DNA from: a virus
DNA length: 64,000 bases
Virus record (IMG/VR): IMGVR_UViG_3300044733_000695
Location: 1 to 64,000 of that record
Reading direction: 5' to 3' (one strand)
Made by a program: the position numbers and the translations under genes. Below the pieces are notes generated by a model, which saw nothing but the letters and a program-made list of their open reading frames with translations, made no database searches and was not told the origin of the DNA. Shown piece after piece: positions 1 through 47,485 of the stretch (its first letter is position 1; every line of letters begins with the position of its first letter).

Positions 1-108
1 CGTCGTCGGCGGGACTATCTCCGGCCCCTGCATCCGGCTTATGGGTGATGGTCAGCCTTCGTCGCTGACAGGACTAACTCCGGGCCATGCATCCGGCTTG
101 TGGCTGAA
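1..108. repeat. 108-bp exact direct repeat, copy 1
   Basis: cgtcgtcggcggg...tggctgaa is identical to 40568..40675; the copies diverge at 109/40676. Confidence 0.95.
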
Positions 109-470
109 GTGATACTACCGCCCTGGTCACGCATGGTCAACCGTTGGGCATCCTCAACGCTGCGTGCCACGCCAGCAATGCCGCCGGCAGCTTGCACCGC
201 ATCAAGCCACTGCTGCTGCTCTGGCCTGAGCCTGCCGGTGGGTGTCTTGACCTCGATGCTGAGAAACACAGCCACCTGGGTGCCGACCATCTCAGGGGTG
301 ACGGTGACCGTCCGCCAGCCGATCAGGTCAGCACTGCCCTTGGCCAGGCCAAACTGCACAGGGCGGCCATGCTGGTCGCGCAGGGTGCCGGTGTTGTTGC
401 GGAACACCTTAATATCACCGTGGCTGATGGCTAGCCGGATTTCCTGCTGGATGCGTTGCTCGCTCACCAA
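39..470 (-). CDS. VRR-NUC domain nuclease
   Basis: SEQRIQQEI...GSADLIG...IEVKTPTGRLRPEQQQWL motif; homolog at 49121..49486. Confidence 0.85.
   Translation of the reverse strand: MVSEQRIQQEIRLAISHGDIKVFRNNTGTLRDQHGRPVQFGLAKGSADLIGWRTVTVTPEMVGTQVAVFLSIEVKTPTGRLRPEQQQWLDAVQAAGGIAGVARSVEDAQRLTMRDQGGSITSATSRMHGPELVLSATKADHHP
112..140 (-). promoter_or_regulatory. Sigma70-like promoter firing into the repeat element
   Basis: Minus strand TTGACC-17 nt-TAGTAT; expected start site near 105-107. Confidence 0.7.

Positions 471-24652: not shown

Positions 24653-24656
<4 letters not shown>
24012..24656 (+). CDS. Tail assembly protein (lambda gpI-like, ubiquitin-like fold)
   Basis: VKVYGALRK, IAPVIAGAG, NTSQQGLPVPIAYG. 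Confidence 0.88.
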
Positions 24657-28468
<3,812 letters not shown>

Positions 28469-33573: not shown

Positions 33574-34425
33574 ATGGCGATCACGTCTACGCGAGTATCG
33601 CCAGAGCTTTTGGAGATACGGATACCGTACAACAGCACCAAGGAAGAAGCAACCTTTCTACTGCTGTCGGACATCCACCTAGATAACCCAAAGTGCAACC
33701 GCAAGCTGCTGCTGCAGCACTTGGATGAGTGCAAGGCGATTGGCGGCCATGCTTTGATGTTTGGCGACGTGCTTTGCCTGATGCAAGGCAAAAAGGATCG
33801 GCGCGGCAGCAAGGGCGACATCAGGCCAGAGCATCTTGGCGGCAACTATTTTGATCTGGTGTTCCGCGAGTCAGCCGACCTGCTCCGGCCATACGGTGAC
33901 ATGATCCTGATGATGGGCGACGGCAACCACGAGACTGCCGTGCTCAACAATCAAGAGATCGACCCGCTAGAGAACGTGGTCAGGCTCATGCGCAACGATG
34001 GCGCGGTTACCGAACACATGGGATACCAGGGCTTTGTGCGGTTTGCGTTCCGGCAGTCAGCCGGCCGTACACGCCGCTGCACATTGTTCTTCCACCACGG
34101 CGCATGGGGCGGCATCGTCACCAAAGGCACCATGGGTGGCGGCCGCTACGCGCAGATCGCACCTGATGCAGACATCATGCTTAACGGCCACAACCACGAG
34201 CGCAGCATTGTGGCACACCCGTGCTACCGCATCGCAGAAAACGGCAAGGCATGGATTGAGCAGCGCTGGCACCTGCAAACCGGCACCTACAAGCAGGAGT
34301 TTGGCGCTACTGGTGGCTGGGCGATTGAGCGCATCGTAATGCCTAAGTCACTTGGCGGGATATGGCTAACGCTGCGGCCACGAGAGCGCGGCGGCGTTGA
34401 CATCTCCTGCAGGCCAACCGTATGA
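33574..34425 (+). CDS. Calcineurin-like metallophosphoesterase
   Basis: SDIH, GD, GNHE, HHG, GHNH. Confidence 0.85.
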   Translation: MAITSTRVSPELLEIRIPYNSTKEEATFLLLSDIHLDNPKCNRKLLLQHLDECKAIGGHALMFGDVLCLMQGKKDRRGSKGDIRPEHLGGNYFDLVFRESADLLRPYGDMILMMGDGNHETAVLNNQEIDPLENVVRLMRNDGAVTEHMGYQGFVRFAFRQSAGRTRRCTLFFHHGAWGGIVTKGTMGGGRYAQIAPDADIMLNGHNHERSIVAHPCYRIAENGKAWIEQRWHLQTGTYKQEFGATGGWAIERIVMPKSLGGIWLTLRPRERGGVDISCRPTV

Positions 34426-34604
34426 GACAGTACGTCCTTGAGATTGAGTACACCATTGTGGTGGAATCTGAAGACGACGACCCAGAAGAGGTATCGGACA
34501 ATTTCGTGGCGCGGCTCACTGAGCTAGCGCCGTCCAACGATCACGTCCTGGGCCTCACGGTTCAGGTGTTACCCATCCCGGAACTGCGTGGATCATTTGA
34601 TTGA
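34422..34604 (+). CDS. Small acidic hypothetical protein
   Basis: Homologous to 40754..40939. Confidence 0.65.
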   Translation: MRQYVLEIEYTIVVESEDDDPEEVSDNFVARLTELAPSNDHVLGLTVQVLPIPELRGSFD

Positions 34605-34887
34605 TGGCTCCAACCTCGTATCAAAACGCAGCGCAAAGCATCAATTTAGACAGCAAATTTTTGAAGCATGGGGCCATACATGCGCGTATTGCGGCGCCCC
34701 GGCTGACACGCTAGACCATGTGAAGCCACGTCATAAAGGTGGCGCTACTGTTGCTTGCAATCTTGTACCGGCGTGCAAGAATTGCAACCGTAAGAAAGGC
34801 AGCGAGGAATGGCGCGAATGGTTTAGCCGTCAAGATTCGTGGTCTGTTGATCGCGTTCTAAAGATTCAGGATTGGTTGGTTGATTGA
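34588..34887 (+). CDS. HNH endonuclease
   Basis: CAYCG..TLDHVKP..KGG...NLVPACKNCN..K. Confidence 0.9.
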   Translation: MDHLIDGSNLVSKRSAKHQFRQQIFEAWGHTCAYCGAPADTLDHVKPRHKGGATVACNLVPACKNCNRKKGSEEWREWFSRQDSWSVDRVLKIQDWLVD

Positions 34888-34999
34888 GCATCTGATGGTA
34901 AAAAATCAGTGCTTGCCACTGCTGCCTGTGCTCTCGGCACATACCGTTGAAGCAAACCCTCCATACATCCTGATAGCGGCTGATTGTTGGTTTCGACAT
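34823..34999 (-). CDS. Hypothetical protein
   Basis: CFNGMCR..WQA motif shared with 41311..41484. Confidence 0.55.
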   Translation of the reverse strand: MSKPTISRYQDVWRVCFNGMCREHRQQWQALIFYHQMLNQPTNPESLERDQQTTNLDG

Positions 35000-35879
35000 G
35001 GCCAAGCGGGGTATTGCTTAATGGGTTGCTCATCAGCATACGAAGGCGGCTAATGCCACGACGCTCTAGGTTTTGCAGCTTGGTGCGGCTGACGCCTGTT
35101 TGTTGTTCAAGTTGCGCCCAGGTGACAGGCCGCGCAAGGTTTCTGGCATGGATTACCTGTTTGGTCAACGGGTCTAAGTATTTGTTAAAACAATCCATCA
35201 ATTCGCGTATCTCTTGCCGGGTTTCTATCAGGTCATTGTCGTAGTTAGGGTCAGCAATGTTGTCACCGATGCATGTGGTCTCGGTGTCAGCAACACGCTG
35301 GTCTAGGCTTGTCACTTTATAGGTTTGCTTTAACAAGTATGACAGTTCTTCTACATCCATATCCAGTGCGTTAGATATTTCGCTCATGGTTGGCTGTCTG
35401 CCGATCTTATGGCTTAGATCCTGCATGGTGCGGTTTATCTTGTACAGCATCTCATGCAAACTGGTTGGCAGGCGAATTATGGAGTCATGCTGGATCAATG
35501 CCCGCGTAATGCCTTGCCTGATCCACCAATAGGCATAAGTTGAAAACTTGTAACCGCGTGACGGGTCGAATAGCTCAACCGCACGCGCAAGGCCGATATT
35601 GCCCTCTTGGATCAAGTCCATCAACTCAAGCGTCTTATTGCTGCGCTTGTCGTACTTGCGGGCTACATGGACTACAAGCTGCAGGTTGGACTTAATAAAC
35701 CGTTGCCTAGCGCGTTCACCGCTTCGCAACTCGCGTTGCTCATCACGGGTTAGCTCCCTGTCGCATTGTCTTAATTCTTGCCATCTAATGACACGCCTGC
35801 CGAGTTGTATCTCTTGTTGCGGTGTCAGTAGTGGATATTTGGCGATACTGTTGAGGTAGTCTTTGATGCTGTCGGCCAT
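34866..35879 (-). CDS. RpoD/SigA-family RNA polymerase sigma factor
   Basis: YPLLTPQQEIQL, NLQLVVHVARKY, DLIQEGNIGL, GYKFSTYAYWWIRQGITRA. Confidence 0.95.
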   Translation of the reverse strand: MADSIKDYLNSIAKYPLLTPQQEIQLGRRVIRWQELRQCDRELTRDEQRELRSGERARQRFIKSNLQLVVHVARKYDKRSNKTLELMDLIQEGNIGLARAVELFDPSRGYKFSTYAYWWIRQGITRALIQHDSIIRLPTSLHEMLYKINRTMQDLSHKIGRQPTMSEISNALDMDVEELSYLLKQTYKVTSLDQRVADTETTCIGDNIADPNYDNDLIETRQEIRELMDCFNKYLDPLTKQVIHARNLARPVTWAQLEQQTGVSRTKLQNLERRGISRLRMLMSNPLSNTPLGHVETNNQPLSGCMEGLLQRYVPRAQAAVASTDFLPSDAQSTNQS

Positions 35880-36123
35880 GATGAATCCATTAGTTCACAC
35901 AATGGAAGCACAGTTCCACGGCGCTGCCAACGCTAACATGTTGCGCCAGCTACATGCAGCAAAAGATTGGAATGCGTTACTTGAGTACAGCTTGCTACTG
36001 GCTGAGCAGGAGGCTAGCCAGCGCTCGCAGATTAAGTGGCTAGCTGCCGAGGCGATGCGCTCATGCAGCATCGAGCCTTGGCATTTGGCTGCGGCCGAGG
36101 AACTGCTTGGAGGCAGCCACTAG
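35878..36123 (+). CDS. Hypothetical protein divergent from the sigma gene
   Basis: ORF filling the gap between sigma and dcd. Confidence 0.5.
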   Translation: MMNPLVHTMEAQFHGAANANMLRQLHAAKDWNALLEYSLLLAEQEASQRSQIKWLAAEAMRSCSIEPWHLAAAEELLGGSH

Positions 36124-36615
36124 CTTGTCATTGTTGTAGTGCCCAACCTGCGCATAGCTCAGCGCTGGCTGCTGGCTCATGCGGAAAAACACCATCTGAC
36201 CAATCTTGAGCCCTGGGTAAATGGGCAGCGGCTGCAGCTGACGGGCGTTTTTCAGCTCTAGCGTTAGCGTGCTGCCATTCCAGCCGGGATCGGCATAGCC
36301 GGCGTGGAGGTTCTCATAGCCCTCCCTAGCGCGGCTTGACTTCAGGAAGAACAGGCCGGCGATATCTTCCGGCATGTAAAAGGTCTCCACCGTCTGGGCC
36401 AGCACAAACTGACCAGGCACCAACTCGTATGGATGCTCCACGGTGTAACCGCTGATGTCAAGCGGAATCATCTGGTGCCCTTGGACCGATTCGAGCATGA
36501 TCAGGTTGCCAAGCCGCAGGTCCAAGCTGGCAGGATTGATCAGCTCTGGGTCATGGCCCTGCACCATCCCCTGAGTGACGATCAGGTCTTCGATTTCGGT
36601 GTCAGATAGGATCAT
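36061..36615 (-). CDS. dcd: dCTP deaminase
   Basis: INPASLDLRLG, KSSRAREG, AGYADPGW.G..TLEL, IGQMVF. Confidence 0.92.
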   Translation of the reverse strand: MILSDTEIEDLIVTQGMVQGHDPELINPASLDLRLGNLIMLESVQGHQMIPLDISGYTVEHPYELVPGQFVLAQTVETFYMPEDIAGLFFLKSSRAREGYENLHAGYADPGWNGSTLTLELKNARQLQPLPIYPGLKIGQMVFFRMSQQPALSYAQVGHYNNDKLVAASKQFLGRSQMPRLDAA

Positions 36616-36835
36616 TGATGTCGATAACGTGTTTACCAGTGCAGTGCTTAGATGCTGACCATTTCAGGTCATACTTTGAAATTTGAATTTCTGCCGGTTG
36701 CTTGGTGTACCAGCGGTGATTACACCCATCGCAGCGGCGACGCCTAACAATCGTACCGTCAGCCAATTGATTGGTCATAACGACATACGTCTGCTGGCAT
36801 GAGCAGCTAGGGCATCGGACTTGAACTGCTGGCAC
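36602..36835 (-). CDS. Zn-ribbon protein (NrdR N-terminal-like)
   Basis: CPSC...VRRRRCDGCNHRWYT. Confidence 0.7.
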   Translation of the reverse strand: MPAVQVRCPSCSCQQTYVVMTNQLADGTIVRRRRCDGCNHRWYTKQPAEIQISKYDLKWSASKHCTGKHVIDINDPI

Positions 36836-37097
36836 GTCTAACTCGGCTCATAGCATCGGACCTGAATTGCTTGCATGTATCTTCTAAATCTTGGGCAAGG
36901 ACGGCAGCCGAACGCAGCAGCGTTGTAAGCGTCACCGGCTTCATGTCACGATCCGTCGCATAGCGAATGGCGTGCCTGAAGCCTTGACTGATGTTGCCGC
37001 CGCCGAGTTTGCGGGCAGCTTCAATCTCCTCGCGGCTCATGCGAATGTTCACCGTGTAGTTGCGACCGCGCTGCGTTGGTATGCGCGGGCTAGGCAT
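36807..37097 (-). CDS. RHH-like hypothetical protein
   Basis: Near-identical homolog at 42951..43232. Confidence 0.7.
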   Translation of the reverse strand: MPSPRIPTQRGRNYTVNIRMSREEIEAARKLGGGNISQGFRHAIRYATDRDMKPVTLTTLLRSAAVLAQDLEDTCKQFRSDAMSRVRRASSSSPMP

Positions 37098-37332
37098 TGC
37101 CCTCTAGCTCGGCAGCGATGGCGAGAAAATGAGCGCGAATGGCGTGATGTGCGGCGAACACGCCTGCATCAGCGTCGGTGTCACCTAATGGCGTGTTCAT
37201 CTGCACCTGATCCGCAGCAGCTCGCAGAGCGGCGGCAATCGCGGGCAGGTAATGCCAGTCATCCGGCTTGCCGCTGGCGGCGCGGTTGAACTCCCAGAAC
37301 ACTTGTTGCGCGGCAGGGGAGAGGTTAGTCAT
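37090..37332 (-). CDS. Hypothetical protein
   Basis: MTNLSPAAQ...IAAALRAAADQV...LAIAAELE. Confidence 0.6.
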   Translation of the reverse strand: MTNLSPAAQQVFWEFNRAASGKPDDWHYLPAIAAALRAAADQVQMNTPLGDTDADAGVFAAHHAIRAHFLAIAAELEGNA

Positions 37333-37477
37333 CCAAGGCCTCCTCCATGTCGCGCTTTACCAAATCAGCAATGCGCTGCTGATACAGCCCGGTGTAGGTT
37401 TCGCAGGTGCGGCCATAGTGGTGATACAACCACTCCAAGTAGTCCTGCCGTTGCTGGTCAGCTATTGGGTTGTTCAC
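37325..37477 (-). CDS. Hypothetical protein
   Basis: DQQRQDYLEWLY..GRTCETYTGLY, homologous to 43225..43494. Confidence 0.6.
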   Translation of the reverse strand: MNNPIADQQRQDYLEWLYHHYGRTCETYTGLYQQRIADLVKRDMEEALDD

Positions 37478-37609
37478 TGATAAGCTCCATCAACTCAAGG
37501 ACATGGGCCGCAAAGGCGGCATGGGTCATCACTGCATGGGTGCCAGGAGGGCGCCCGTAGGACGCCTCCCACCACTCCTTGAATGCAGCTTCAAGGCTGG
37601 TTTGGTTCA

Positions 37610-37960
37610 TCAGAATGCAGACTCCTCGCTAGCAGCAGCAGCAGCACGCGGCAGGTATTCAAACCGGGTGACGTTCAGCACATGCTTAGAGCGCTTAGCG
37701 CCGCTCTCCTTATCCTGCCAGTCCTGACGGCGAATGCCGCCGGTAACCATGATGCTGTCGCCTTTTTTGCAGTTGTCGGCAATCATTTGACCGCCTTTAC
37801 CCCAGACCTCTACGTCAATTGCATTGTTGATGTAGTTGCCATCTTTATCTTTGCCTTCCTGAATGCCTGCACCAAAGTTGCAAACACAAGTACCGGAATC
37901 AAAAAACTTAATTTGCGGCTCGCTAATAATGCGCACGACGCCGGAAGCATACAAACTCAT
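37610..37960 (-). CDS. ssb: Single-stranded DNA-binding protein
   Basis: VEVWGK...KKGDSIMVTG.IR...WQDKESGAKRSK; acidic/Phe C-terminus. Confidence 0.88.
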   Translation of the reverse strand: MSLYASGVVRIISEPQIKFFDSGTCVCNFGAGIQEGKDKDGNYINNAIDVEVWGKGGQMIADNCKKGDSIMVTGGIRRQDWQDKESGAKRSKHVLNVTRFEYLPRAAAAASEESAF

Positions 37961-38163
37961 GGGTTGATTGGTGTAATGGAATGGGTCTCTTCAAAGGCCA
38001 GTACATCAGGCAGGTTGTACCTGACGCGGGACTGGCCGAGTGGACATCCTAGCCTCGGGACTGTGTAATAGCTAGGTCCTTGGCCGCGTAATCGTTGAGA
38101 CTTAATGCTGGACGGCTTGAGGCCCCAACGCTCGGCTAGTTGCTCAGTTGTCAGATAACTCAT
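37957..38163 (-). CDS. Excisionase-like HTH protein
   Basis: [11 protein letters not shown]...GQGPSY...VRY...VLAFE. Confidence 0.75.
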
Positions 38164-38890
38164 TCTCTTTTTCAAGCATTAGTTGCAAAAGTTGATCGTG
38201 CTGCTCTTGGCTGATCTCACCGGCTTCTAGCCGTGCCGCCATACGCGGTTGCAGGTCTTCTAGATCCTGCAGGGTTTTGGCCTTAGCGATGGCCGCCTTA
38301 CCAGCGGTGAACGTCTTGCTGCTGTCTACCTTGGTGGTAGCAGGCAGCTTGACCTGCTCAGCTGGCGTGACCGTAACAGTCTCGGCTTGGTCCATTTCGT
38401 CGGTGCTGTACACACCAGACATGTCGGCAGGGAATGCCTTACGAAGCGCCAGCGCCTCAGAGCATTTGGCAATCATGGCGGCTGGCATTTTGGACCACAG
38501 CCCTTGGCCGGCGTTGTAGTCAGCAAAGCGGGCAACACCAATAAAAGGGTGTTGGCTGCCTTTGCGATGCACGATGGTCTTAGCTGCAGCGGGCGGCTTG
38601 CTGGAGAGCCATACGTCGCGCCATTCGCCTTCATCACCACACCAGTACGTCTCGCTGCCGTCTAGTTGTCCGGTGCGTTCGGCAATGGCACGCAAACCGT
38701 CAATGCCGGCCTGAATGGTCATCTTGCCGCCACGCTTGATGGCGTAAATCTGCTTGCTGAATGGGTCAAGGCCAGTGCGCTGGCACGCATAGGCGAACAG
38801 CCGCAGCTCATCATTGCTGCAGCCTGGCGCAATGGTGCTGCTAATAAGCTGCGTTTGCTCTGGGGTCCAAAGGGTGATAGCGGTTGACAT
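38144..38890 (-). CDS. bet: ssDNA annealing recombinase (Bet/RecT family)
   Basis: [38 protein letters not shown]. Confidence 0.9.
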
Positions 38891-39684
38891 CAGAACTCGA
38901 TGGGTGATTGCTGGTTGGCATTAAGTGCCCAGCCGGGCAGGCTGAGCGTTTGGACTGAGGTGTCGCCGTAGCCGGGCCACATGTCAGCGGCCTTGCAGGT
39001 GGCGATCACGTCCAGTGCATTATCGCGCATGGTCCGCCCTAGTGCCATAGCGGCATGGTCCAGTTCGTAAACGGCGACCGCATACGGCGCAGTCTTTTCC
39101 ACTGCGATAAACACAAACCGGCCAGCACCGTGCAAACCAGCGAGGTAATGCGCTGCCTGGACGTGGTAGGCGAAGGTCGCCACGCTACGCGCAAACGCTG
39201 CAGGGCTGGCGTCTTGGCATGTCTTCAGGTCAACGATGGTGCTGCCTTGATACCAGTCTGGGCGGCATTTGCAGCGCAGTCCTGTTGGCAGGTCATCCCA
39301 CCAGAACGACTGCTCAGCCTTGCCATGAGCGAGCAGCGCTGATGCAGCAGGATGCCGTCGGACGCTATCGGCCATGCAGTTAGCGGTCAGCATGTCGCCG
39401 GCCGTTACGGCTTCGATGCCAGCAGTAGCCATCTGCTCAGCCTGTTCCTTGCCTGCTTTGGTGTTGCGTGGCCCGCAGACGCCATAGCGGGATGACAGCT
39501 CATCAGGCTCCAGCACGGCGCAATGCACCAAGCTGCCTAGCTTCATCGCTGCTGTCGGTTCAACCGGCAAGCGATGCGGGTCCAGATATCGCGCCCAATA
39601 GTGGTAAGGCGATTGCATTACCGCTTTGAGGTGACTGGCGCTGACGGCTGGGTCGGCGTGATAGTCGGCACTAGAGATGGTCAT
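38890..39684 (-). CDS. PD-(D/E)xK exonuclease (RecE/ExoVIII-like)
   Basis: YHA..AVSAS, GSLVH..LEP, KCRPD, VDLKT, YHVQAA.Y. Confidence 0.9.
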
Positions 39685-39881
39685 GCTTCCACCCCCTCGC
39701 GCAGTTTGCGGTGCAGCCGGCTGCTAGGGCCATAGGTTGCGTAAATCTCCGGGAATGCCAGCAGCAGGCGCTCGCGGTTGATCGGGTCAGCCTTGAGGCC
39801 GGCTTCAGCCAAGGCGGTAAAGAAGTTACCGGCATACTGCGCTGCAGTGATGAAAGTCCAGTAGCGGTCTGAGTCGGTCAT
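39681..39881 (-). CDS. Hypothetical protein
   Basis: GNFFTALAEA..KADPINRERL..AFPE. Confidence 0.6.
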   Translation of the reverse strand: MTDSDRYWTFITAAQYAGNFFTALAEAGLKADPINRERLLLAFPEIYATYGPSSRLHRKLREGVEA

Positions 39882-39935
39882 AGAATTAACGCGGTGTGTT
39901 GAGGTGGGGCGGTTGGTGTGGCCGCCCCGTTTTCT

Positions 39936-40115
39936 TTACGCCAGTGCTAGACGGACGCGGTAACGGCTGATGTGCATGTGCTCCGCAATGCGGCGCTGCG
40001 TCCAGCCGTAGCCGCGCAGTCGCTTGGCGCGTTGCTCGGTTGACTCCGTTGCCCAGAGCAGAACCAGCAGTGGTAGCAGCAGCAAGGCGGTCAACAGGGC
40101 AATTGTGGTTGTCAT
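39936..40115 (-). CDS. Transmembrane + HTH small protein
   Basis: LLLLPLLVLLWATES...GWTQRRIAEHMHISRYRVRLALA; homolog at 44418..44612. Confidence 0.65.
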   Translation of the reverse strand: MTTTIALLTALLLLPLLVLLWATESTEQRAKRLRGYGWTQRRIAEHMHISRYRVRLALA

Positions 40116-40175
40116 GGTGTTAAAGCGGGTGGAATGGTGCCGGGATTGGGTGCGGCTCCCGGTTGGCCGCGTGGG

Positions 40176-40427
40176 TCAAGCCCCGGCAGGTCCCAGTCGA
40201 TAGCCCGGAGAAAAGATCATGAACTCGTCATTCCAGCCCAGATCCTTCACCGTGACAGGCGCAGCGGTGTAGTAACCGATTGCAGAAACGGTGACGTGCA
40301 CTTCGTCCCGGTCAACAACTGCGTAGTTGATGGGATTGCGCCAATCGGCAGGATCGGCAACCTTGGCAAAAGCAGCATCAAGCTGTGCCTCAGTAAACGG
40401 AGTACCAGTTTCCTGAAGGATCAGCAT
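40176..40427 (-). CDS. Hypothetical early protein
   Basis: First ORF downstream of the promoter at 40481..40508. Confidence 0.6.
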   Translation of the reverse strand: MLILQETGTPFTEAQLDAAFAKVADPADWRNPINYAVVDRDEVHVTVSAIGYYTAAPVTVKDLGWNDEFMIFSPGYRLGPAGA

Positions 40428-40480
40428 CTGAAGCGCAGCCTCCGGGCTGCCGAGTGGGGGTCTTGCCCCCTGATGCACAT

Positions 40481-40508
40481 ATCCTACACCATGTGCCGCC
40501 GTGGTCAA
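40481..40508 (-). promoter_or_regulatory. Sigma70-like early promoter
   Basis: TTGACC-16-TAGGAT on the minus strand, followed by a GGGGGC-AAG-ACCCCC-type hairpin. Confidence 0.65.
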
Positions 40509-40524
40509 GCGTGGTGAGGGGAAT

Positions 40525-40675
40525 GGATGAGGTCAGGTAACGCCCGACCCCCGAGGCGGCCGACCTGCGTCGTCGGCGGGACTATCTCCGGCCCCTGCAT
40601 CCGGCTTATGGGTGATGGTCAGCCTTCGTCGCTGACAGGACTAACTCCGGGCCATGCATCCGGCTTGTGGCTGAA
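40525..40675 (-). ncRNA. Candidate structured non-coding RNA (~150 nt) with two tandem units
   Basis: Promoter upstream, no credible ORF, ~59-nt tandem units with compensatory hairpins UCAGC-GACGAAG-GCUGA / CCGAC-GACGCAG-GUCGG. Confidence 0.55.
40568..40675. repeat. 108-bp exact direct repeat, copy 2; junction between phages A and B
   Basis: Identical to 1..108. Confidence 0.95.
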
Positions 40676-40753
40676 AACAATATACACCGTGCGCAGCGTT
40701 ATCGGGGTTGATCCGGTCGCAGCGGTTACCGTTGGCCAAGCAGCAGCCAGCCC

Positions 40754-40939
40754 ATGCGGGCGTTCCTGATCGAGATCACCGCGAAGGTGGTGCTCCGCTC
40801 CGACACTGACCCCGACGAGCTGCCAGCCAACCTCTACAGCCGCCTTTCGGAACACTTCGGCAACGACGACGACATCCTCGATCTTTGCATCGAGGCGATG
40901 CCCCTGCCGCTTGATCTCAGTGGACAAGGCGCACATTGA
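40754..40939 (+). CDS. Small acidic hypothetical protein
   Basis: Homologous and syntenic (before HNH) with 34422..34604. Confidence 0.65.
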   Translation: MRAFLIEITAKVVLRSDTDPDELPANLYSRLSEHFGNDDDILDLCIEAMPLPLDLSGQGAH

Positions 40940-41225
40940 TGAGACGCGGCTGGTCACAAGGCGCCACGCGCGCGATCAGATCCATCTGGCATGGGACTAT
41001 CGCTGCGCCTACTGCGACGATCCGCTTGGGCGATCGCCCACTCTGGACCATGTCATCCCCAAGGTCCATGGCGGCCTGACCGTCCGCGAGAACCTGATCA
41101 GCTGCTGCCTTAGCTGCAACAGCCGCAAGGGCCACAAGGCGTGGCTCGACTGGTATCGCCAGCAAGAGTTCTGGTCAGCATCCCGTGAGTGGGCCATCGC
41201 CATGTGGGTGGCGGGTGAAAACTAG
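40911..41225 (+). CDS. HNH endonuclease (start uncertain)
   Basis: CAYC..TLDHVIPK.HGG...NL..CCLSCNSRKG. Confidence 0.88.
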   Translation: MISVDKAHIDETRLVTRRHARDQIHLAWDYRCAYCDDPLGRSPTLDHVIPKVHGGLTVRENLISCCLSCNSRKGHKAWLDWYRQQEFWSASREWAIAMWVAGEN

Positions 41226-41310
41226 GGCAGGATCTTCTTCAGCAGGCAGATCACCAGCGCGCAGATCACCCAGTACATCACCGCCAGGTAGGCAATCACG
41301 GCAAGACTGC

Positions 41311-41484
41311 TCATCGGGCCAGCAGATGATCAAGGTACAGCTCAGCCTGCCAGAGGTCGCTTGAGTATCGGCACATGCCGTGCGCGCAGCTGCGGTAGTA
41401 CAGCTCTCCGCCGCCAGCAGGTTCCAGCGTTTCGATCCAGCCGCCGTCGCGATCCATGCGGCTCACGCAAACCGGCTCACTCAT
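41311..41484 (-). CDS. Hypothetical protein
   Basis: YYRSCAHGMCRYSSDLWQAELY. Confidence 0.6.
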   Translation of the reverse strand: MSEPVCVSRMDRDGGWIETLEPAGGGELYYRSCAHGMCRYSSDLWQAELYLDHLLAR

Positions 41485-41662
41485 GGCGGCGAATCCAGTC
41501 CTTCAGGCTGATCACATACTGACGCAGGTCTTGGGCCCGCTCGAGGTGCCACCGGTCACCCGTCGCGAAATACAGACCGTTATGCCGGTCGATCGCGTGC
41601 AGCAGATCACGGATCAACGGGCACCACGGCTCACGGGTTGGCGTCAACCATTCGCGCGGCAT
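41477..41662 (-). CDS. Hypothetical protein
   Basis: Homologous to 13722..13985. Confidence 0.7.
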   Translation of the reverse strand: MPREWLTPTREPWCPLIRDLLHAIDRHNGLYFATGDRWHLERAQDLRQYVISLKDWIRRHE

Positions 41663-41665
41663 GGT

Positions 41666-41992
41666 TCACCGATCAGGCGTGAACATGGCGCAGCGTGCCG
41701 CAAATCGACCGCCAGTCTGCCGCGCTTCAGGAAACTGCAGGTTGCAGCGATTCCGCGTCGCTTCCCATTGCACGCAGTCCCAACACATCGGCACCGCCCC
41801 GGCTGGTCGGATGTTGGCGCACGCCATCTGATAGATGGACTGCGCACGCAGCATCGCATCCTGCAGCCGGATGGCGCCGGTGTCGGCTTCGAGCTGATGC
41901 TCAGGCTTGGGCCCTAACACCACACGCGCGTGCCAGGTACGGTCGGCGCGATCGCAGAAGAGAAGCAACCGGCCGCCGTAGAACGTGATCAT
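41666..41992 (-). CDS. Hypothetical Cys-rich protein
   Basis: CWDCVQW...C...FPE...AARC. Confidence 0.6.
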   Translation of the reverse strand: MITFYGGRLLLFCDRADRTWHARVVLGPKPEHQLEADTGAIRLQDAMLRAQSIYQMACANIRPAGAVPMCWDCVQWEATRNRCNLQFPEARQTGGRFAARCAMFTPDR

Positions 41993-42225
41993 TCCGGCTC
42001 GCCGTAGCTGGGCGCGTGATACAACCGCTCAAGCAGCATCGAGGCCGGTTCACCGTCGCCGCTCATGATGGCCCGCGCTACCGGATCCGATTGATCCGCT
42101 GCGACGAACACTTCAAGGGCGTCATGCTCCTTCACCATCACCAAGCTGGTGCGAGGGCTGCGGACCAGCATCGCGACCGCCAGCCGCTCGAGGAAGGTCA
42201 GACCTGGCAGGTGGTGGTCGTTCAT
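41989..42225 (-). CDS. Hypothetical protein
   Basis: Overlapping start/stop coupling with neighbours. Confidence 0.55.
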   Translation of the reverse strand: MNDHHLPGLTFLERLAVAMLVRSPRTSLVMVKEHDALEVFVAADQSDPVARAIMSGDGEPASMLLERLYHAPSYGEPE

Positions 42226-42437
42226 TGGCTCATGGTGCCAAGCAAACGGGTTAGGTACCACTGGGCCTTCATTAAGGATTCCTTGCCTCCTTTGTGCCGT
42301 TCACGCCAGGCGTACTTCATCAAGTTCCCCTTACAAAACCCGCGGAACTCCTCAGCCGTTAGCGCCGCTTGGATCGCGTCGATGCATTCAATCTCGCCCT
42401 GCCGGTAGTGGCCGGGCTGGTTGACGGGATCAGACAT
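42222..42437 (-). CDS. DUF3310 (SaV-like) protein
   Basis: DPVNQPGHY..GEIECIDAI..KGNLMKY.WR. Confidence 0.85.
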   Translation of the reverse strand: MSDPVNQPGHYRQGEIECIDAIQAALTAEEFRGFCKGNLMKYAWRERHKGGKESLMKAQWYLTRLLGTMSQ

Positions 42438-42954
42438 TGAACTGCCTCGAGGCGGTGGCAAGCTGGTCGTTGTTGTAGTGGCCAGTGACGGCATAGCTAA
42501 CTGCTGGCCGCTGACTCATGCGGAAGAACACCATCTGGCCAATCTTCAGACCGGGCCAGATCGGCAGCGATTGCAGCTGGCGCGCGTTCTTCAGCTCAAG
42601 CGTGAGCGTGCTGTCATGCCAGCCAGGATCGGCATATCCAGCGTGCAGGTTCTCATAGCCCTCCCTGGCGCGGCTCGACTTCAGAAAGAACAGGCCGGCC
42701 ACATCTTCGGGCATGTTGAAGGTCTCGACCGTTTGGGCCAGTACAAACTGACCAGGCACCAACTGATAAGGATGCTCTGGCGTGTACCGGCTGATCTCGA
42801 GCGGGATCATCTGGTGGTTCTGGACCGATTCAAGCATGATCAGGTTGCCAAGCCGCAGGTCCAAGCTGGCTGGATTGATCAGGTCTGGGTCATGGCCCTG
42901 CACCATCCCTTGAGTGGCGATCAGGTCTTCGATTTCGGTGTCGGAGAGAATCAT
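42430..42954 (-). CDS. dcd: dCTP deaminase
   Basis: Highly similar to 36061..36615. Confidence 0.92.
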   Translation of the reverse strand: MILSDTEIEDLIATQGMVQGHDPDLINPASLDLRLGNLIMLESVQNHQMIPLEISRYTPEHPYQLVPGQFVLAQTVETFNMPEDVAGLFFLKSSRAREGYENLHAGYADPGWHDSTLTLELKNARQLQSLPIWPGLKIGQMVFFRMSQRPAVSYAVTGHYNNDQLATASRQFNV

Positions 42955-43232
42955 GGTTTGGTGGTAGCGCGTCTGACGCGGCTCATGGCGTCAGACTTGA
43001 ACTGTTGACAGGCATCTTCAAGGTCCTGCGCCAGCACAGCGGCTGAGCGGAGCATGGTGGCCAGCTTCACCGGCTTAAGGTCGCGCTCGGTCGCGTAACG
43101 GATCGCCTGCCGAAAACCTTGGCTGATGTTGCCGCCGCCAAGTTTGCGGGCAGCTTCGATCTCCTCGCGGCTCATGCGGATGTTGACCGTGAAGTTGCGA
43201 CCGCGCTGCGTTGGTATGCGCGGGCTAGGCAT
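42951..43232 (-). CDS. RHH-like hypothetical protein
   Basis: MPSPRIPTQRGRNFTVNIRMSREEIEAARKLG. Confidence 0.7.
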   Translation of the reverse strand: MPSPRIPTQRGRNFTVNIRMSREEIEAARKLGGGNISQGFRQAIRYATERDLKPVKLATMLRSAAVLAQDLEDACQQFKSDAMSRVRRATTKP

Positions 43233-44281
43233 TGCCCCACTTGCCAAGCAAGAACTGCCGGCACACATGGATGCACTGCTGCGCGTGTTTGTCAGCCAGA
43301 TGGCTCTCGGTTTCGCCAATCGCCAGCACACACGCGGCATGGAGTTCGGCGTAATCGGTGTCGCGGAAGTTGGCGCCCAGGTCCATGCTGAACTCCTCCC
43401 ACAGGCCGGTATAGGTGCAGCAGGTGCGGCCACTGGCTTGGTAAAGCGCCTCGAGCATGTCGGCGCGTTGCTGATCGAGTTGAACCCGGTTCATTGGTGT
43501 GGGTGCATGGCTTGGCGGATCGTAAGCAGTTCTTCCCGGCGTGCCGAGATGTGCGGGTGACTGGGCAGCCCAGCCAGCTGGTCGAGCCGTGCATCGATCA
43601 AGGCGCACAGCCGCAGCCGTTCTTCGACCTGGCCGGCGTTGAACATGCCCGAATCGCTGATGAGCGCTTCAAGTTTGGCGCGAATGTGGTCGGTCATCGC
43701 AGGCTCGGGTTCCGCTCTGCAGCGGTCAGTGATGGGTGGTCATCGTCATCGTCTTCCCAGTCGGGCTGAAGCAGCACGCTCAGCACCTGCTGGCCTGGGT
43801 ACAGCTCCATCGCGCTCAGCGCAGCGGTGGCCGCGTTCGGTGCCAGCAGCTCAACCTGATCGATCGCGAGGGTGACGCGGTAGCAGTTCATGCCACCTCC
43901 ACCTCAGAGCCGGGCCAGCGAGCCTGCGCGTATTTGATCGCGTGCCGTTTCGTCTCGGCGCGGGTGATCCATGTCATCGGCTGAGAGCCGGGCTTGAACA
44001 CCAGCAGCCTGAACTCGCGTGTCCGGGCCTTGGGCTTCGGGCGGCTGATGCCGTCGCCGTAGCGGCCCTGCTGCTGGTCATCCCACTGAAGGCAGACGTT
44101 ATCCATCGATGGTGCGGGCGATGTGTTGCGGGTCGATCCATTCCATCTCGTCCCAGAACGGCAACCAGTCAGTGGCTGCTTTGGCCTTGGCATCCGTCAG
44201 GCTGTACGCCCAGATGCATTCGATCACGTTGGCGTCGCGGATAGTGAAGTAAAAGCGGCGCAGCTCAGGGGCGTCAGTCAT
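43225..44281 (-). other. Run of five small coupled early ORFs (43225..43494, 43491..43697, 43694..43891, 43888..44106, 44099..44281)
   Basis: Overlapping start/stop codons on the minus strand. Confidence 0.6.
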
Positions 44282-44421
44282 GGCTTCAACCCCGGATGGC
44301 ACGCAGGGTGTTGGTGGTGGGCCAGCGTGGCCTGATCGCGGCCGGCAGCGATGCCGATGCCGTAGAGCATGAACATCAGCACAAGCAGGCCGACGCGATT
44401 CCAGAAGCGGTTGGTGATCAT
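44278..44421 (-). CDS. 47-aa membrane peptide
   Basis: MITNRFWNRVGLLVLMFMLYGIGIAAGRDQATLAHHQHPACHPGLKP; homolog of 10056..10199. Confidence 0.75.
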   Translation of the reverse strand: MITNRFWNRVGLLVLMFMLYGIGIAAGRDQATLAHHQHPACHPGLKP

Positions 44422-44612
44422 GATGCGAGCGCCCGGCGGACGCGGTAGCGGGTGAGGTTGAGGCGATCTGCGATCTGCTGCTGGGTGAGACCAGCGCGAC
44501 GCAGGATGAGAACACGGCGATCGGTGGAAGCCGTCAGCCAGTCGATCAGAGCGACCAGCACTAGCAGCGGCAGGATCAGCTTCCAGATCACCAGAGCAGT
44601 GGCGGTGAACAT
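44418..44612 (-). CDS. Transmembrane + HTH small protein
   Basis: GLTQQQIADRLNLTRYRVRRALA. Confidence 0.65.
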   Translation of the reverse strand: MFTATALVIWKLILPLLVLVALIDWLTASTDRRVLILRRAGLTQQQIADRLNLTRYRVRRALAS

Positions 44613-44646
44613 GGCGTGGTGGGGTGGGTGAAGAGCCCCGGAGGGC

Positions 44647-44871
44647 TCAGACGACGGCAACCAGGCGGTCCTTGCCCATGCGCTTCTCCCAAGTGGTGCC
44701 GTCGTTGTTGGCGAATTGTGCGATCACCTGAGCCTTTGTCTCCTTGACAAAACCAACGAAGGCGTGGGTGTAACCAAAGTTCCAAATAGTCACGTCGCCG
44801 GCTTGAAGCTGACCGGCGGGTTTGCCTTTGCAGCGGCCGACGGACTGGATCTGAACGGTGGCGGTGGTCAT
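44647..44871 (-). CDS. Hypothetical early protein
   Basis: ORF after a hairpin and C-rich leader. Confidence 0.55.
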   Translation of the reverse strand: MTTATVQIQSVGRCKGKPAGQLQAGDVTIWNFGYTHAFVGFVKETKAQVIAQFANNDGTTWEKRMGKDRLVAVV

Positions 44872-44958
44872 GGTTGGCGGGGTGGGTAGTGGCCTCGTCG
44901 GCCGTGCACACAGTATGGGACACCGCCGGCAGTGCACGCTAGGGGGCTGTAACAGTTC

Positions 44959-45204
44959 TTAATCCGGCGAGTCGGCAAGGCCGCCTGGCGTCACCTCAGC
45001 AGCAAGCTCCACCGGCACCCGCAACACTGGCTTGTTCATGTGATCGTGGCTGTAACCGATGGCGTACCGGCTCACTGGCAGCTCGACCGTGAACCACACA
45101 TGCTTGCACTGGCGGCATTGCCGTTTACGCACCGTCTGGTTCTCATACACGTTGTTGGTGATCACCGCATAGAAGCGGCCGGCACCGCATTGGGGGCATT
45201 TCAT
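44959..45204 (-). CDS. Zn-ribbon protein (NrdR N-terminal-like)
   Basis: MKCPQC...VRKRQCRQCKHVWFTVE. Confidence 0.7.
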   Translation of the reverse strand: MKCPQCGAGRFYAVITNNVYENQTVRKRQCRQCKHVWFTVELPVSRYAIGYSHDHMNKPVLRVPVELAAEVTPGGLADSPD

Positions 45205-45233
45205 GGGCAACATGGGGCAACTGCCCCGATTCG

Positions 45234-45449
45234 ATGGACTTCGGAAAATGGCTGCAAGTCGAGATCGCCCCTGAGAAGCTGTTCAAGCTGGAAGGCGACT
45301 GCCGGATGCTTGAAGCCAATGGCAAAGCCGGGCAGCTTGCCGCCCAGCTCCTTAGGCAGACCTACCGCCAGCAGGAAATGCTCCAGGCGGCGGTCCATGA
45401 GATCGCACGCCTGGAGCTGATGCTGCTGCATCAGAACACGTCAGCCTGA
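45234..45449 (+). CDS. Hypothetical protein
   Basis: Lone plus-strand ORF filling the gap. Confidence 0.5.
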   Translation: MDFGKWLQVEIAPEKLFKLEGDCRMLEANGKAGQLAAQLLRQTYRQQEMLQAAVHEIARLELMLLHQNTSA

Positions 45450-45796
45450 ACCACCACGCCGCCGGTAGCAGCCGCCAGGCTCTCAGCCGCAGCAGGTGCC
45501 GACTCCTCGATCGCCTTTTGCGTCTTGTAGTCGGGCTCGATCGCCATCGATACATAGGCATCGCCGCCGCTGGCAGGTTCCTTCCGCCAGCCGCTGATCC
45601 GCATCGGGATCTGATCGCGTTCGTTCGGCTTTGCATCCATCAAGTACTTAGCCATCGCATACGCCTGATCGGCCGGCACGCTGATTACGCCGTCATACAT
45701 CGGATAGTTCTTGGACGGGTCGAACCGATCCTTCAGCCGCGCGCGCAGCTTTTCCTCGGTGTTTCTGAACAATGCGCCGTTTGCTTTGAAGGTCAT
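45431..45796 (-). CDS. Putative ssDNA-binding protein
   Basis: GALFRN...PMYDG...ISGWRK..YVS; DVF C-terminus; syntenic with ssb of phage A. Confidence 0.6.
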   Translation of the reverse strand: MTFKANGALFRNTEEKLRARLKDRFDPSKNYPMYDGVISVPADQAYAMAKYLMDAKPNERDQIPMRISGWRKEPASGGDAYVSMAIEPDYKTQKAIEESAPAAAESLAAATGGVVVQADVF

Positions 45797-45799
45797 GGG

Positions 45800-45985
45800 T
45801 TAGTCGTGAGTGATGGTGTTGGCCTGTTCGTAACGCTCCACCTCGGCCAATGGGTAGAGCACGCGCCCTTCGATGCGCGCATAGGCTGGCCCAGTTGCCT
45901 GCCGGCGCCACCTAAGCAGCGTCTGCCGGTGAACTTGCCATCGTGCAGCCAACTGCACATCAGTCAAAAAATCAGAAGAGTTCAT
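45800..45985 (-). CDS. Excisionase-like HTH protein
   Basis: LTDVQLAARW...TLLRWR...GPAY..IEGRVLY. Confidence 0.78.
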   Translation of the reverse strand: MNSSDFLTDVQLAARWQVHRQTLLRWRRQATGPAYARIEGRVLYPLAEVERYEQANTITHD

Positions 45986-46640
45986 CAGTCACCACCTCCA
46001 CGGGTTCGGGCTCAGGCTGAGCGATCGCAGCGTTCAACTGATCCAGGCTGGTCTTCGGCAATTCAGGCTTGACCGTCACCGGCTCAATGTCAACTACTTC
46101 CTCCTGCGTCTGGATGCCGACCAACAACTCAGGGATGTAAAGCCGCCCCCAGAAAGCCGCGGCCCTGTACCTGATCATCAGATCCGGCATGGTCTGCCAC
46201 TTGCTGCCTGATTTCGTTGCCCATCCTTCCTTCTTGGCCATCGCCATCGTGACGGTTGGCCCGCGCAAATCTTTGCCACTGGCCAGCTCGGTGGCGACAC
46301 AGGTGCAGGCCAAAGAGTCGCCCTGACCTGTCACCTCATACTGCAGCGGGCTGAAGCGGCCGCAGCCGTTGATCAGGCCGATGATGAACTGGCTGCTCCA
46401 CGATGGGCGCCCATGGATGATGTGCAGGTTCTGCATCACCTGGAAGGGTGACATCCGCATCCGGTTCGCAATCTCAAGCGCAACCAGGCAATTGGCGAAC
46501 CCTTGCTGTCCTTGAAATTGCGGCGGGATCAACGTGCTGCTAGCCAATGCCTTGGCGATCCGTTGAGCGTCCTCGAAGGCTTGAATGCCCGAGAACACCG
46601 AACCTGCTGGCTGGGTGGTGATCGCTGTGGATTCGGTCAT
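45972..46640 (-). CDS. RecT-like ssDNA annealing protein
   Basis: VMQNLHIIHGRPSW, SKWQTMPDLMIRYRAA; next to exonuclease. Confidence 0.8.
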   Translation of the reverse strand: MTESTAITTQPAGSVFSGIQAFEDAQRIAKALASSTLIPPQFQGQQGFANCLVALEIANRMRMSPFQVMQNLHIIHGRPSWSSQFIIGLINGCGRFSPLQYEVTGQGDSLACTCVATELASGKDLRGPTVTMAMAKKEGWATKSGSKWQTMPDLMIRYRAAAFWGRLYIPELLVGIQTQEEVVDIEPVTVKPELPKTSLDQLNAAIAQPEPEPVEVVTDELF

Positions 46641-46642
46641 GA

Positions 46643-47485
46643 TCAGTAGGTTTCGATTTCAGTGGGTGGTTGCATCGTCGATCCATCCGGCCGCGGCAGC
46701 ATCCATGGCGGCAGGCTGATCGGCTCGATCTGGTCGCTGTAACCAGGCCAGACGTTGCCAGCCTTGCAAGTGGCAAGCACATCCAGATCGCGGGCAGCAG
46801 TCTCGGCGCCGATCGTCACCATTACCGGCGACGCGGCATAAACCGCCACGCAATAGGGCGGACGCTTTTCAACGCAGATAAACAAGAACTGATCAGGTCG
46901 GTGGCCGGTTGCGTGCTCGATGCCGTCCAGATACCAGCTGGCTTGGACGTGATACCGATAAGCGCCGATCGACTTGCGAAACCCTTCGGGGCTGGCATCC
47001 TCGGTCGTCTTCAGGTCAACGATCAGGTTGCCGTCATTGGTCAGCCAGTCGGGGCGGCACTTACAGGCCAGACCCGTCGCCTGATCAGTCCACATGTGGG
47101 TGGTCTCCGCCTTGCCCTGCCAATGAAGCAGCGCCGCTGCTGCTGGATGCGACCACACAGCTTCAGCCATGCGGCTGATCTGCGCGCGATCGTCGGCCGC
47201 GATCAGCTCACGACCGCCAGCTTCAGCCTCGAACTCTGCCCAGGCTTCTTTGCCCGCCTTGGTACGGCGATCGACCTGCGGCGCCGTGACGTAGCGGCTT
47301 TCGAATTGATCCTGCTCGAGCACCAGCGTGTGGATCGCGGTGCCGATACGCATCGCTGCGGTCGGCTCTGGCACCTCCCGCTTTGGGTCGAGGTAGCGCG
47401 CCCAGTAATGCAGCGGGCTGCGGGCCACCAGGTCGAGGTGCGACTTGCTGACCGCTGGGTGGGCGTGATAGGTGGCGTTGTCCAT
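46643..47485 (-). CDS. PD-(D/E)xK exonuclease (RecE/ExoVIII-like)
   Basis: YHAHPAVSKSHL, KCRPDW, VDLKTT, YHVQASWY. Confidence 0.9.
   Translation of the reverse strand: MDNATYHAHPAVSKSHLDLVARSPLHYWARYLDPKREVPEPTAAMRIGTAIHTLVLEQDQFESRYVTAPQVDRRTKAGKEAWAEFEAEAGGRELIAADDRAQISRMAEAVWSHPAAAALLHWQGKAETTHMWTDQATGLACKCRPDWLTNDGNLIVDLKTTEDASPEGFRKSIGAYRYHVQASWYLDGIEHATGHRPDQFLFICVEKRPPYCVAVYAASPVMVTIGAETAARDLDVLATCKAGNVWPGYSDQIEPISLPPWMLPRPDGSTMQPPTEIETY

Follow-up and report, generated by a model that had tools for sequence, protein, structure and literature searches.

Cyanophages account for much of the mortality of picocyanobacteria and, to our knowledge, little is known about early-gene regulation in the siphoviruses of picocyanobacteria; as far as we know, cyanobacteria also lack Rho. 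Several described RNAs offer terms of comparison. Type III antitoxins (ToxI, CptI, TenpI) are made of a promoter, tandem short pseudoknot repeats that are near-identical to one another, and a hairpin, and phage-borne mimics of them (pseudo-ToxI) are known. In guanidine-III riboswitches the P2 helix is CCGG/CCGG, an assignment that we carried over to a printed sequence. That sequence, the 41-nt guanidine-III (ykkC-III) RNA of T. fusca, is an H-type pseudoknot (bioRxiv 10.1101/2025.04.15.648854). In phage HK022, put is a ~70-nt RNA with two stem-loops and a triplex in stem I; an early promoter of the phage immediately precedes putL, and the nascent RNA acts on its own polymerase (PMC9378689). 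The put RNA is reported to bind RNA polymerase and to suppress pausing and termination in cis with no need for protein factors. Here we describe an RNA element with likenesses to these systems, found on the minus strand at positions 40525-40684 of a 64,000-nt stretch of viral DNA (the window), which is bases 1-64000 of the 73,028-nt virus record IMGVR_UViG_3300044733_000695. As far as sequence comparison can tell, the element is a member of an uncatalogued structured-RNA family present in about 100 contigs of cyanobacterial viruses and in one cultured phage; its carriers appear to be siphoviruses related to Synechococcus and Prochlorococcus phages.

The element runs on the minus strand from 40672 to 40529: behind a -10 hexamer come two modules of ~59 nt and then a 9-bp hairpin. 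An initial annotation of this DNA had described two such units and a third hairpin; its sequence and coordinates were found as given, except that the stems of the units, said to be of 5 bp, are of 6 bp (GUCAGC/GCUGAC and GCCGAC/GUCGGC). The hexamer read from the sequence is TATATT (40679..40684), in a flank called type B below, and predicts a start at A40672, 6 nt downstream. Unit 1, starting 6 nt after TATATT, reads AGCC-ACAAG-CCGG-AUGCA-UGGC-CCGG-AGUUAGUCCU-(GUCAGC-GACGAAG-GCUGAC)-CAUCA. Its pseudoknot (40647..40671) combines helix S1, in which GCCA (40671-40668) pairs with UGGC (40654-40651), and helix S2, in which CCGG (40663-40660) pairs with CCGG (40650-40647), with loops L1, CAAG, and L2, AUGCA. 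The hairpin H2, GUCAGC-GACGAAG-GCUGAC, occupies 40618..40636, and the linker CAUCA, 40613..40617, leads to the second module; among loci this linker varies, being CCAUCAC or CCACCAC. Unit 2 reads CCC-AUAAG-CCGG-AUGCAG-GGG-CCGG-AGAUAGUCCC-(GCCGAC-GACGCAG-GUCGGC). Its pseudoknot (40588..40612) pairs CCC (40612-40610) with GGG (40594-40592) in S1, the C-G version of a pair that covaries, and CCGG (40604-40601) with CCGG (40591-40588) in S2, L1 being (A)UAAG; its H2, GCCGAC-GACGCAG-GUCGGC, is at 40559..40577. After a spacer comes the closing hairpin GGGGUCGGG-CGUUA-CCUGACCUC (40529..40551), which has 9 bp in the nested fold, is followed by AUCCAUUCC without a U tract, and is kept in the tandem high-GC loci.

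Homologs were collected by pattern searches. A strict pattern found 18 viral contigs, a looser one 5 further true contigs along with 7 chance matches, a variant allowing for the A-U pair 7 contigs, and a combined pattern 56 contigs of which 44 were new; a metagenome scan gave 31 true matches out of 38. A covariance model built from 23 modules matches all 100 of the 100 collected loci, with 128 matches (74 loci with a single module and 25 with two, plus the two loci of the window); these locus counts are not de-duplicated, some metagenome and viral records being the same contig. The tandem RNA of ~150 nt proposed initially is therefore what the window contains, and it is a minority form, since 74 of 100 loci have one module that is then followed by other hairpins. 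No match to two patterns was found when one genome of each of 185,579 species was scanned, and blastn against GenBank phages returned nothing with either the high-GC or the low-GC form. The family had not been recognised at the outset, and a check against Rfam covariance models agreed with this: the whole window gave 0 hits with Rfam 15 at gathering thresholds, a permissive search of 40300-40900 gave chance matches only (E of about 5), and eight homologous loci gave 0 hits at E up to 10. A scan of the window for tRNA and tmRNA found none. A text match of the core sequence against the literature returned a chance primer only, and a search by topic for work on cyanophage small RNAs, riboswitches, pseudoknots or S-CBS1 transcriptomes, supplementary files being outside the search, gave nothing relevant.

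Each ~55-nt module is predicted to be a compact pseudoknot plus a 6-bp hairpin, the core being a pseudoknot because S1 and S2 cross. The covariation that supports this fold consists of few events, counted without correction for kinship. It is broadest in H2, where all six pairs vary on both sides across homologs, for module 1 and module 2 hairpins alike, with a covariation score of 0.41 against 0.13 in shuffles, a value reached by 0 of 500 shuffles. The H2 loop is GAC-purine, its initial GAC being invariant (GACGAAG, GACGCAG, GACAAGG, GACACGG, (A/G)GACAAGAG(A), GGACACGAGA). S2 was predicted by RNAalifold, and all 67 of the 67 distinct sequences can form it; at one of its pairs 57 have GC and 10 have AU, the latter through a compensatory change to CCAG/CUGG without a broken intermediate. 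S1 joins the first 3-4 predicted transcribed bases to 3-4 loop bases directly before the 3' strand of S2, so that the 5'-most bases of the module adjoin S2; its 5' strand directly precedes A-Y/C-AAG. In the first alignment its outer pair (columns 2-24) is GC in 14 sequences, CG in 8 and other in 1, and S1 reaches at least 3 bp in 41 of 42 distinct cores. It exists in four types, GCC(A)/(U)GGC, GGC/GCC, CGC(C)/(G)GCG and CCC(A)/(U)GGG, that is, four triplets each opposite its own complement. As a control, tails were set against the loops of other cores, and 483 of 1266 such combinations reached 3 bp; the mismatch test is significant, if not clean. L2 can be as short as 7 nt or as long as 19 nt, and harbours an extra small hairpin in the S-CBS1 group; loop and junction bases are invariant. 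Such a combination of variable loop length with invariant loop and junction bases is typical of aptamers.

A different pseudoknot had been suggested in the initial annotation, between the loop of the CCGG stem and a downstream GUCC. It is weak: 77% of the cells were paired and 10 of 19 sequences were unpaired at one of the three pairs, and the partner that the alignment supports is the 5'-terminal bases with the loop. Alternative helices GCC/GGC and GGA/UCC were also considered; they are invariant, hence uninformative. A small peptide starting at the AUG in L2 was rejected, as this AUG is missing in several variants (for example unit 1 of L028, L068 and unit 2 of L126). Because of compensatory changes in three helices, fixed promoter spacing, loops of variable length and different entering frames, the element is placed at the RNA level, and these features argue against a coding or double-stranded-DNA role, in line with the earlier proposal of an RNA rather than a reading frame. 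In particular, loop lengths differ by non-multiples of 3, and the upstream open reading frames (ORFs) of two contexts enter the element in different frames: the VRR-NUC nuclease ORF (39..470, minus strand, Pfam VRR_NUC E = 2.3e-11) runs into it with its last ~25 codons, and the ORF of the type-B context (40619-40957) does so in another frame.

Among the five cultured cyanosiphoviruses searched whole, one, Synechococcus phage S-CBS1, carries the module (26163-26233, minus strand, 30.3 bits, E = 1.3e-7). The module there follows TACTAT by 6 nt, in the 228 nt that separate RusA (gp38) from gp37. With the S-CBS1 form as query, blastn returned S-CBS1 only, plus the downstream leader of S-CBS3. The latter phage lacks the module and keeps the rest of the leader, whose 5' part the module replaces in S-CBS1. 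In S-CBS3 (L160, GU936715.1 28388-29267), the downstream leader and first gene are the same as in S-CBS1, and a different 5' leader segment follows the promoter (TTGACC..CATAGT) where S-CBS1 has the module. The core hardly changes between phages whose GC content ranges from 42 to 69%, which suggests a partner conserved across hosts.

The element sits close to a promoter in most of its contexts. In the first set of upstream sequences, a TAnnnT-type hexamer was present 6-8 nt before the element in 34 of 34 real contexts, with TTGAC(A/C/G) at 16-18 nt in many. When all distinct upstream contexts were taken, a -10-like hexamer (A2, T6) was found 5-8 nt before S1 in 54 of 70; these span about ten unrelated promoter sequences, and in most of them S1 starts 0-1 nt after the predicted transcription start. 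Loci related to the window have TATACT, TATGAT or TATAGT in place of TATATT, the A2 and T6 positions being kept. The 16 contexts without a scored hexamer comprise 1 unit junction, 2 cases out of register (TAATAT and TATTGT by eye) and 13 real exceptions. All 13 are members of the GGC/GCC subgroup, in which another hairpin precedes the element by ~10-14 nt and the element is situated in a stretch that serves as leader in S-CBS1 and S-CBS3. Most copies thus appear to start at the first bases of the transcript, and this position is not obligatory. The initial annotation had noted a -10 hexamer at the same offset in both copies of the window, with identity beginning about where the promoter would start transcription; the latter point stands, as does the former for the window and for the 54 contexts, and the 13 exceptions keep it from being universal.

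What follows the module varies. High-GC tandem forms, the window included, have the 9-bp hairpin and then either a second promoter copy (type A, L028) or a gene start. Low-GC single-module forms have a further hairpin with a covarying stem (GUCGUGA/UCACGAC versus GCCAUGA/UCAUGGC) and a conserved loop CCAGUAGC; in roughly a third of them, judged by eye from folds, a U run comes after the last hairpin. Locus L117 has a perfect canonical terminator, GGGGGU..ACCCCC followed by U7. A module followed by a hairpin and a U run is, to judge by its arrangement, the layout of a transcription attenuator. Other subgroups have a hairpin with loop GCUGCGAUC, then a C/A/U-rich stretch and a start codon. In L165, L122, L166, L199, L202 and others, a third hairpin with covarying stems and GCUGCGAUC in its loop is followed by a ACCCAUUCAC-like sequence and the start codon. 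Judging from such forms, the family is larger and more ornate than its version in the window. In L127/L148/L172 a second hairpin after H2 has a UACAAGAGAC loop and repeats the ACAAGAG motif of the H2 loop, and pseudoknot loop L1 also reads ACAAG; these repeated ACAAG-type loops may be contact sites for one partner. The first gene begins 20-60 nt after the last hairpin in most contexts. A terminator and promoter scan of 34000-47000 gave fewer terminator-like sites than shuffles did, and was uninformative.

The gene most frequently found downstream of the element, which is itself usually found without the element, encodes a protein with a transmembrane helix and a helix-turn-helix (TM-HTH). In the window it is at 39936-40115 on the minus strand, with 59 residues, the transmembrane helix at the N-terminus and the helix-turn-helix at the C-terminus, and it has 203 relatives in viral contigs. 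The element accompanies 13 of 80 TM-HTH loci (12 with the strict motif and 1 variant). In element-free relatives, the VRR-NUC gene ends before the promoter, its stop codon being followed directly by a single promoter. This promoter corresponds to P2, found by a promoter scan and in these relatives (40481..40508, minus strand, TTGACC-16-TAGGAT), and P2 is a homolog of P1 (112..140, minus strand), in which TTGACC (140-135) is separated by a 17-nt spacer from TAGTAT (117-112). P1 sits within the 3' end of the VRR-NUC ORF; its hexamers are kept, and its spacer is variable, among 14 type-A loci. Since the element-free relatives have only one promoter, the element looks like an insertion between two homologous promoters. 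A promoter-element-promoter layout also occurs in L028/L114 and in L128/L134/L142, which makes three lineages with type A. The homologous promoters at 112-140 and 40481-40508, both of sigma-70 type, bracket the element in the window, and promoters seem to be the places where modules are joined by recombination.

The element occurs twice in the window, and no further copy was found in the contig; there is one locus per phage. Positions 1-108 are 100% identical to 40568-40675, forming a direct repeat 40,567 bp apart, the common sequence beginning at 40675 on the minus strand. The copy at 1..108 (minus strand) contains module 1 at 51-104 and the first part of module 2, where the covariance model matches 47-105 and, with the 3' end missing, 1-46; it is truncated within unit 2 because the record begins inside it. 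Flanks are informative here. A type-A upstream flank (VRR-NUC 3' end and TTGACC-17-TAGTAT) was paired with a downstream flank X (the TTGACC-16-TAGGAT promoter) in 14 of 14 loci, and a type-B upstream flank (TGTATAnT) with a flank Y (gene start ~25 nt after the hairpin) in 7 of 7. B combined with X occurs in the copy at 40675 alone, and in 0 of the 21 other complete loci. Because of this hybrid junction, the contig start inside the repeat, the 40,567-bp spacing (about the size of related records, 40.4-42.4 kb) and a second structural gene set after 46.7 kb, the contig probably consists of two phages that meet in the element they share. The simplest reading would be a complete circular phage A (1-40567) followed by part of a phage B (40676-73028), either as an assembly chimera or as a recombinant. 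The claim that both phages share the element in different gene contexts is borne out for the two phage types, with the qualification that the copy at 40525-40684 is itself a hybrid of a type-B upstream and a type-A downstream flank. The dCTP deaminase genes at 36061-36615 and 42430-42954 are ~81% identical, and the phage B part (~32 kb) is related to the ~40.6-kb phage A.

On the minus strand, phage A encodes an HNH-AP2 protein, a helicase and VRR-NUC, then, after the element, TM-HTH, a PD-(D/E)XK exonuclease, RecT, dCTP deaminase and a sigma-70 factor. Its plus strand encodes primase/VapE, beta clamp, methylase, terminase, portal, MuF, tape measure and lysozyme. The terminase is 80% identical to that of Synechococcus phages S-H1 and KBS-S-2A, and 73% to that of Prochlorococcus phages MED4-117 and P-HS2. 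The sigma-70 family factor (34866-35879, minus strand, regions 1.2, 2 and 3) lies at the end of the minus-strand early operon, and its closest relatives in cultured phages are rpsD4 of S-CBS1 and S-CBS3 (~40% identity). Given the similarity of terminase and sigma factor to cyanophage proteins, the host is probably a picocyanobacterium. Imperfect GGTGGC-type glycine-rich repeats are present at 24668-25165 (plus strand), within a tail-region ORF of 1271 residues (24653-28468).

As to function, we tentatively rank first a cis-acting, factor-binding leader RNA of the early operon. The RNA would act in cis at the head of an operon with recombination and nucleotide-metabolism genes; the folded module would bind a factor, either a small molecule, in the manner of a riboswitch, or a protein or RNA polymerase, in the manner of nut or put; this binding would set the level of transcription or translation past the following hairpin into the early genes, and two tandem modules would sharpen or strengthen the response. 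This cis-acting leader is placed first because of the leader position in most contexts, the aptamer-like conservation and the tandem modules. It is further favoured by the 13 promoterless copies, by the lack of a terminator in S-CBS1 and by the terminators found behind the module in AT-richer phages. One specific form of it, a new riboswitch-like class of aptamer whose small pseudoknot would recall a permuted guanidine-III and which would serve cyanophages as a gate on their early genes, controlled by a metabolite of the host or by a physiological signal, is unlikely. A number of observations weigh against the cis-acting leader. The bound factor is hypothetical, and the one possible sign of expression, a 240-nt contig covering 40478-40589 and diverging beyond, comes from a run labelled 'RNA? 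(probably DNA)' and is uninformative on that matter. The chance background of S1 pairing is high (38%); S2 covariation is a single kind of change that may be one event; the minimum free energy of the nested fold, which leaves out pseudoknots, is not unusual (z = +0.36, 129 of 200 shuffles folding equally well). No convincing alternative antiterminator pairing with covariation was found, and in high-GC forms the last hairpin lacks a following U tract. Downstream genes are heterogeneous, TM-HTH being next in 32 of 76 contexts, probably an undercount given how short the protein is. With a second promoter copy after the element in type A, L028/L114 and L128/L134/L142, the genes behind it would be independent of the element. 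Finally, S-CBS3 and 67 of 80 TM-HTH loci (searched within 1.5 kb for the 67) are without the element, which by this comparison is dispensable and patchy, like an accessory gene.

This patchiness (13 of 80 TM-HTH loci; S-CBS1 and not S-CBS3) would suit a trans-acting early small RNA, or 'moron', of ~100-160 nt, which would titrate a conserved host or phage protein, as a decoy or antitoxin mimic, or base-pair with a target. We rank it second, as possible and rather doubtful. It would explain why the element has its own promoter and terminator-like closing hairpins, up to the canonical terminator of L117, why the promoter-element-promoter layout leaves the resident operon promoter intact in three lineages, why the core is almost identical across very different phages, and why copies have one or two modules. 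Held to what defines a stand-alone small RNA gene, the family shows a promoter in 54 of 70 contexts, and a clear terminator in part of the low-GC group only; S-CBS1 and many high-GC forms have no terminator. Such a gene fails to account for the 13 copies that lie inside a longer leader without a promoter of their own. Moreover, no host homolog or complementary site was found among the 185,579 species genomes at the stringency used, no toxin-like gene adjoins, and the tandem modules differ in their stems, as opposed to the near-identical repeats of type III antitoxins. The same 13 contexts, being away from the transcript start, count against a 5'-end stabiliser, in which S1 stacked on S2 would bury the first bases and so shield early transcripts against RNase J or RNase E acting in a 5'-end-dependent way. 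The start of S1 within a nucleotide of the predicted start, its 3' strand abutting that of S2 so that the 5' end lies at a helical junction, and the -10 offset kept across unrelated promoters all fit protection of this kind; however, module 2 of the tandems is internal, a terminator sometimes follows, and a simple hairpin would suffice, leaving the invariant loop and junction bases and the H2 loop unexplained. We regard it as improbable.

Still further down we place a role at the DNA level, as attP, as an origin of replication with iterons or as an operator, the perfect repeat being then the ends of a prophage or a recombination site. The 108-bp direct repeat 40,567 bp apart, the replication and recombination genes nearby and the recurring CCGGA words speak for it, but the repeat is accounted for by a contig start inside the element together with the type-B/type-A hybrid junction, and compensation in three helices, pseudoknot included, fits RNA, the first CCGGA becoming CCAGA only together with its partner. 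An attachment site (attP, attL/attR) was rejected on three counts: no tRNA, 0 matches in the species genomes, and a Pfam scan of 37 ORFs that showed no integrase. A DNA-level role is thus very improbable, and we give as little credit to a self-cleaving ribozyme or other processing signal that would release modules from a primary transcript. The modules resemble such RNAs in being compact (55-60 nt) and pseudoknotted, with junction bases that do not vary, in forming tandems across a short linker and in being carried by phages; however, no Rfam ribozyme family matched even at E up to 10, the order of helices is unlike the hepatitis delta virus-like or hammerhead topologies, and most loci are single-module. 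Of the functions listed in the initial annotation, a type III antitoxin locus is weakened, as no conserved toxin gene follows the element, though the RNA may still be a solo mimic; the rest were not narrowed decisively.

Whichever of these applies, the family adds to the catalogue of structured RNAs missed by current Rfam models. The module would be a handle on a new cis-regulation (aptamer, attenuator or antiterminator), on a phage counter-defence RNA or on a 5'-end protection device. If the aptamer reading were true, it would be the first RNA sensor heading a phage early operon in cyanobacteria. Function is directly testable, since the cultured pair S-CBS1 / Synechococcus sp. CB0201 carries the module.

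It remains to set the module beside known systems. A CsrB/RsmZ-type sponge, in which hairpin loops expose several GGA motifs, was rejected, for both GGA triplets overlap S2 and the first becomes AGA in 10 of 67 sequences with a compensating change of the partner. The promoter, tandem pseudoknot modules and hairpin do recall the type III antitoxin RNAs. The tandem repeats differ in stem sequence, unlike those of the antitoxins, and 74 of 100 loci have a single module. A type III toxin-antitoxin locus, whose repeat array directly precedes an endoribonuclease toxin gene, was rejected, since no toxin gene follows in any context examined; in the window, the downstream ORFs (40176-40508, 39936-40115 and 39681-39881) have a helix-turn-helix or no match, and no endoribonuclease toxin domain. 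Lambda-type nut sites share with the module the promoter-proximal position in an early-operon RNA, a short hairpin with conserved loop and variable stem, as in boxB, and a terminator that can follow. On the other side, a comparison by eye with the boxA consensus showed nothing similar, and no gene resembling N was identified; the module also contains a pseudoknot, and relatives lack the element.

The likeness to guanidine-III includes, by our helix assignment, a CCGG/CCGG pseudoknot helix, and otherwise is one of sequence order: CCGGA, CCCGG and GGACAAGA occur in the printed RNA in the same order as in single-module forms (bioRxiv 10.1101/2025.04.15.648854). The two CCGG flank a strand whose partner is the 3' end in the riboswitch and the 5' end in the module, a permuted-like layout; P1 of the riboswitch encloses the 3' strand of P2, and the order of helices differs in the module. 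The GGACAAGA-like stretch of the module is a hairpin loop, and the ACGAGG stretch, which holds pocket residues C6 and G7 (bioRxiv 10.1101/2025.04.15.648854), is absent from the module. In addition, the loops of the window modules are GACGAAG and GACGCAG, the downstream genes are unrelated to guanidine, and Rfam gave no hit. The likeness to guanidine-III is best taken as a resemblance only, a lead and not membership.

With HK022 put the comparison bears on architecture and position. The module is set apart as a pseudoknot plus hairpin instead of two long stem-loops. Other differences are that it is often in tandem, is dispensable in close relatives, sometimes precedes a second promoter, and is found in phages whose host is a cyanobacterium. 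Like put, the module is a short RNA (~55-60 nt) with two helical elements, and in most contexts its first bases coincide with the start predicted for an early promoter.

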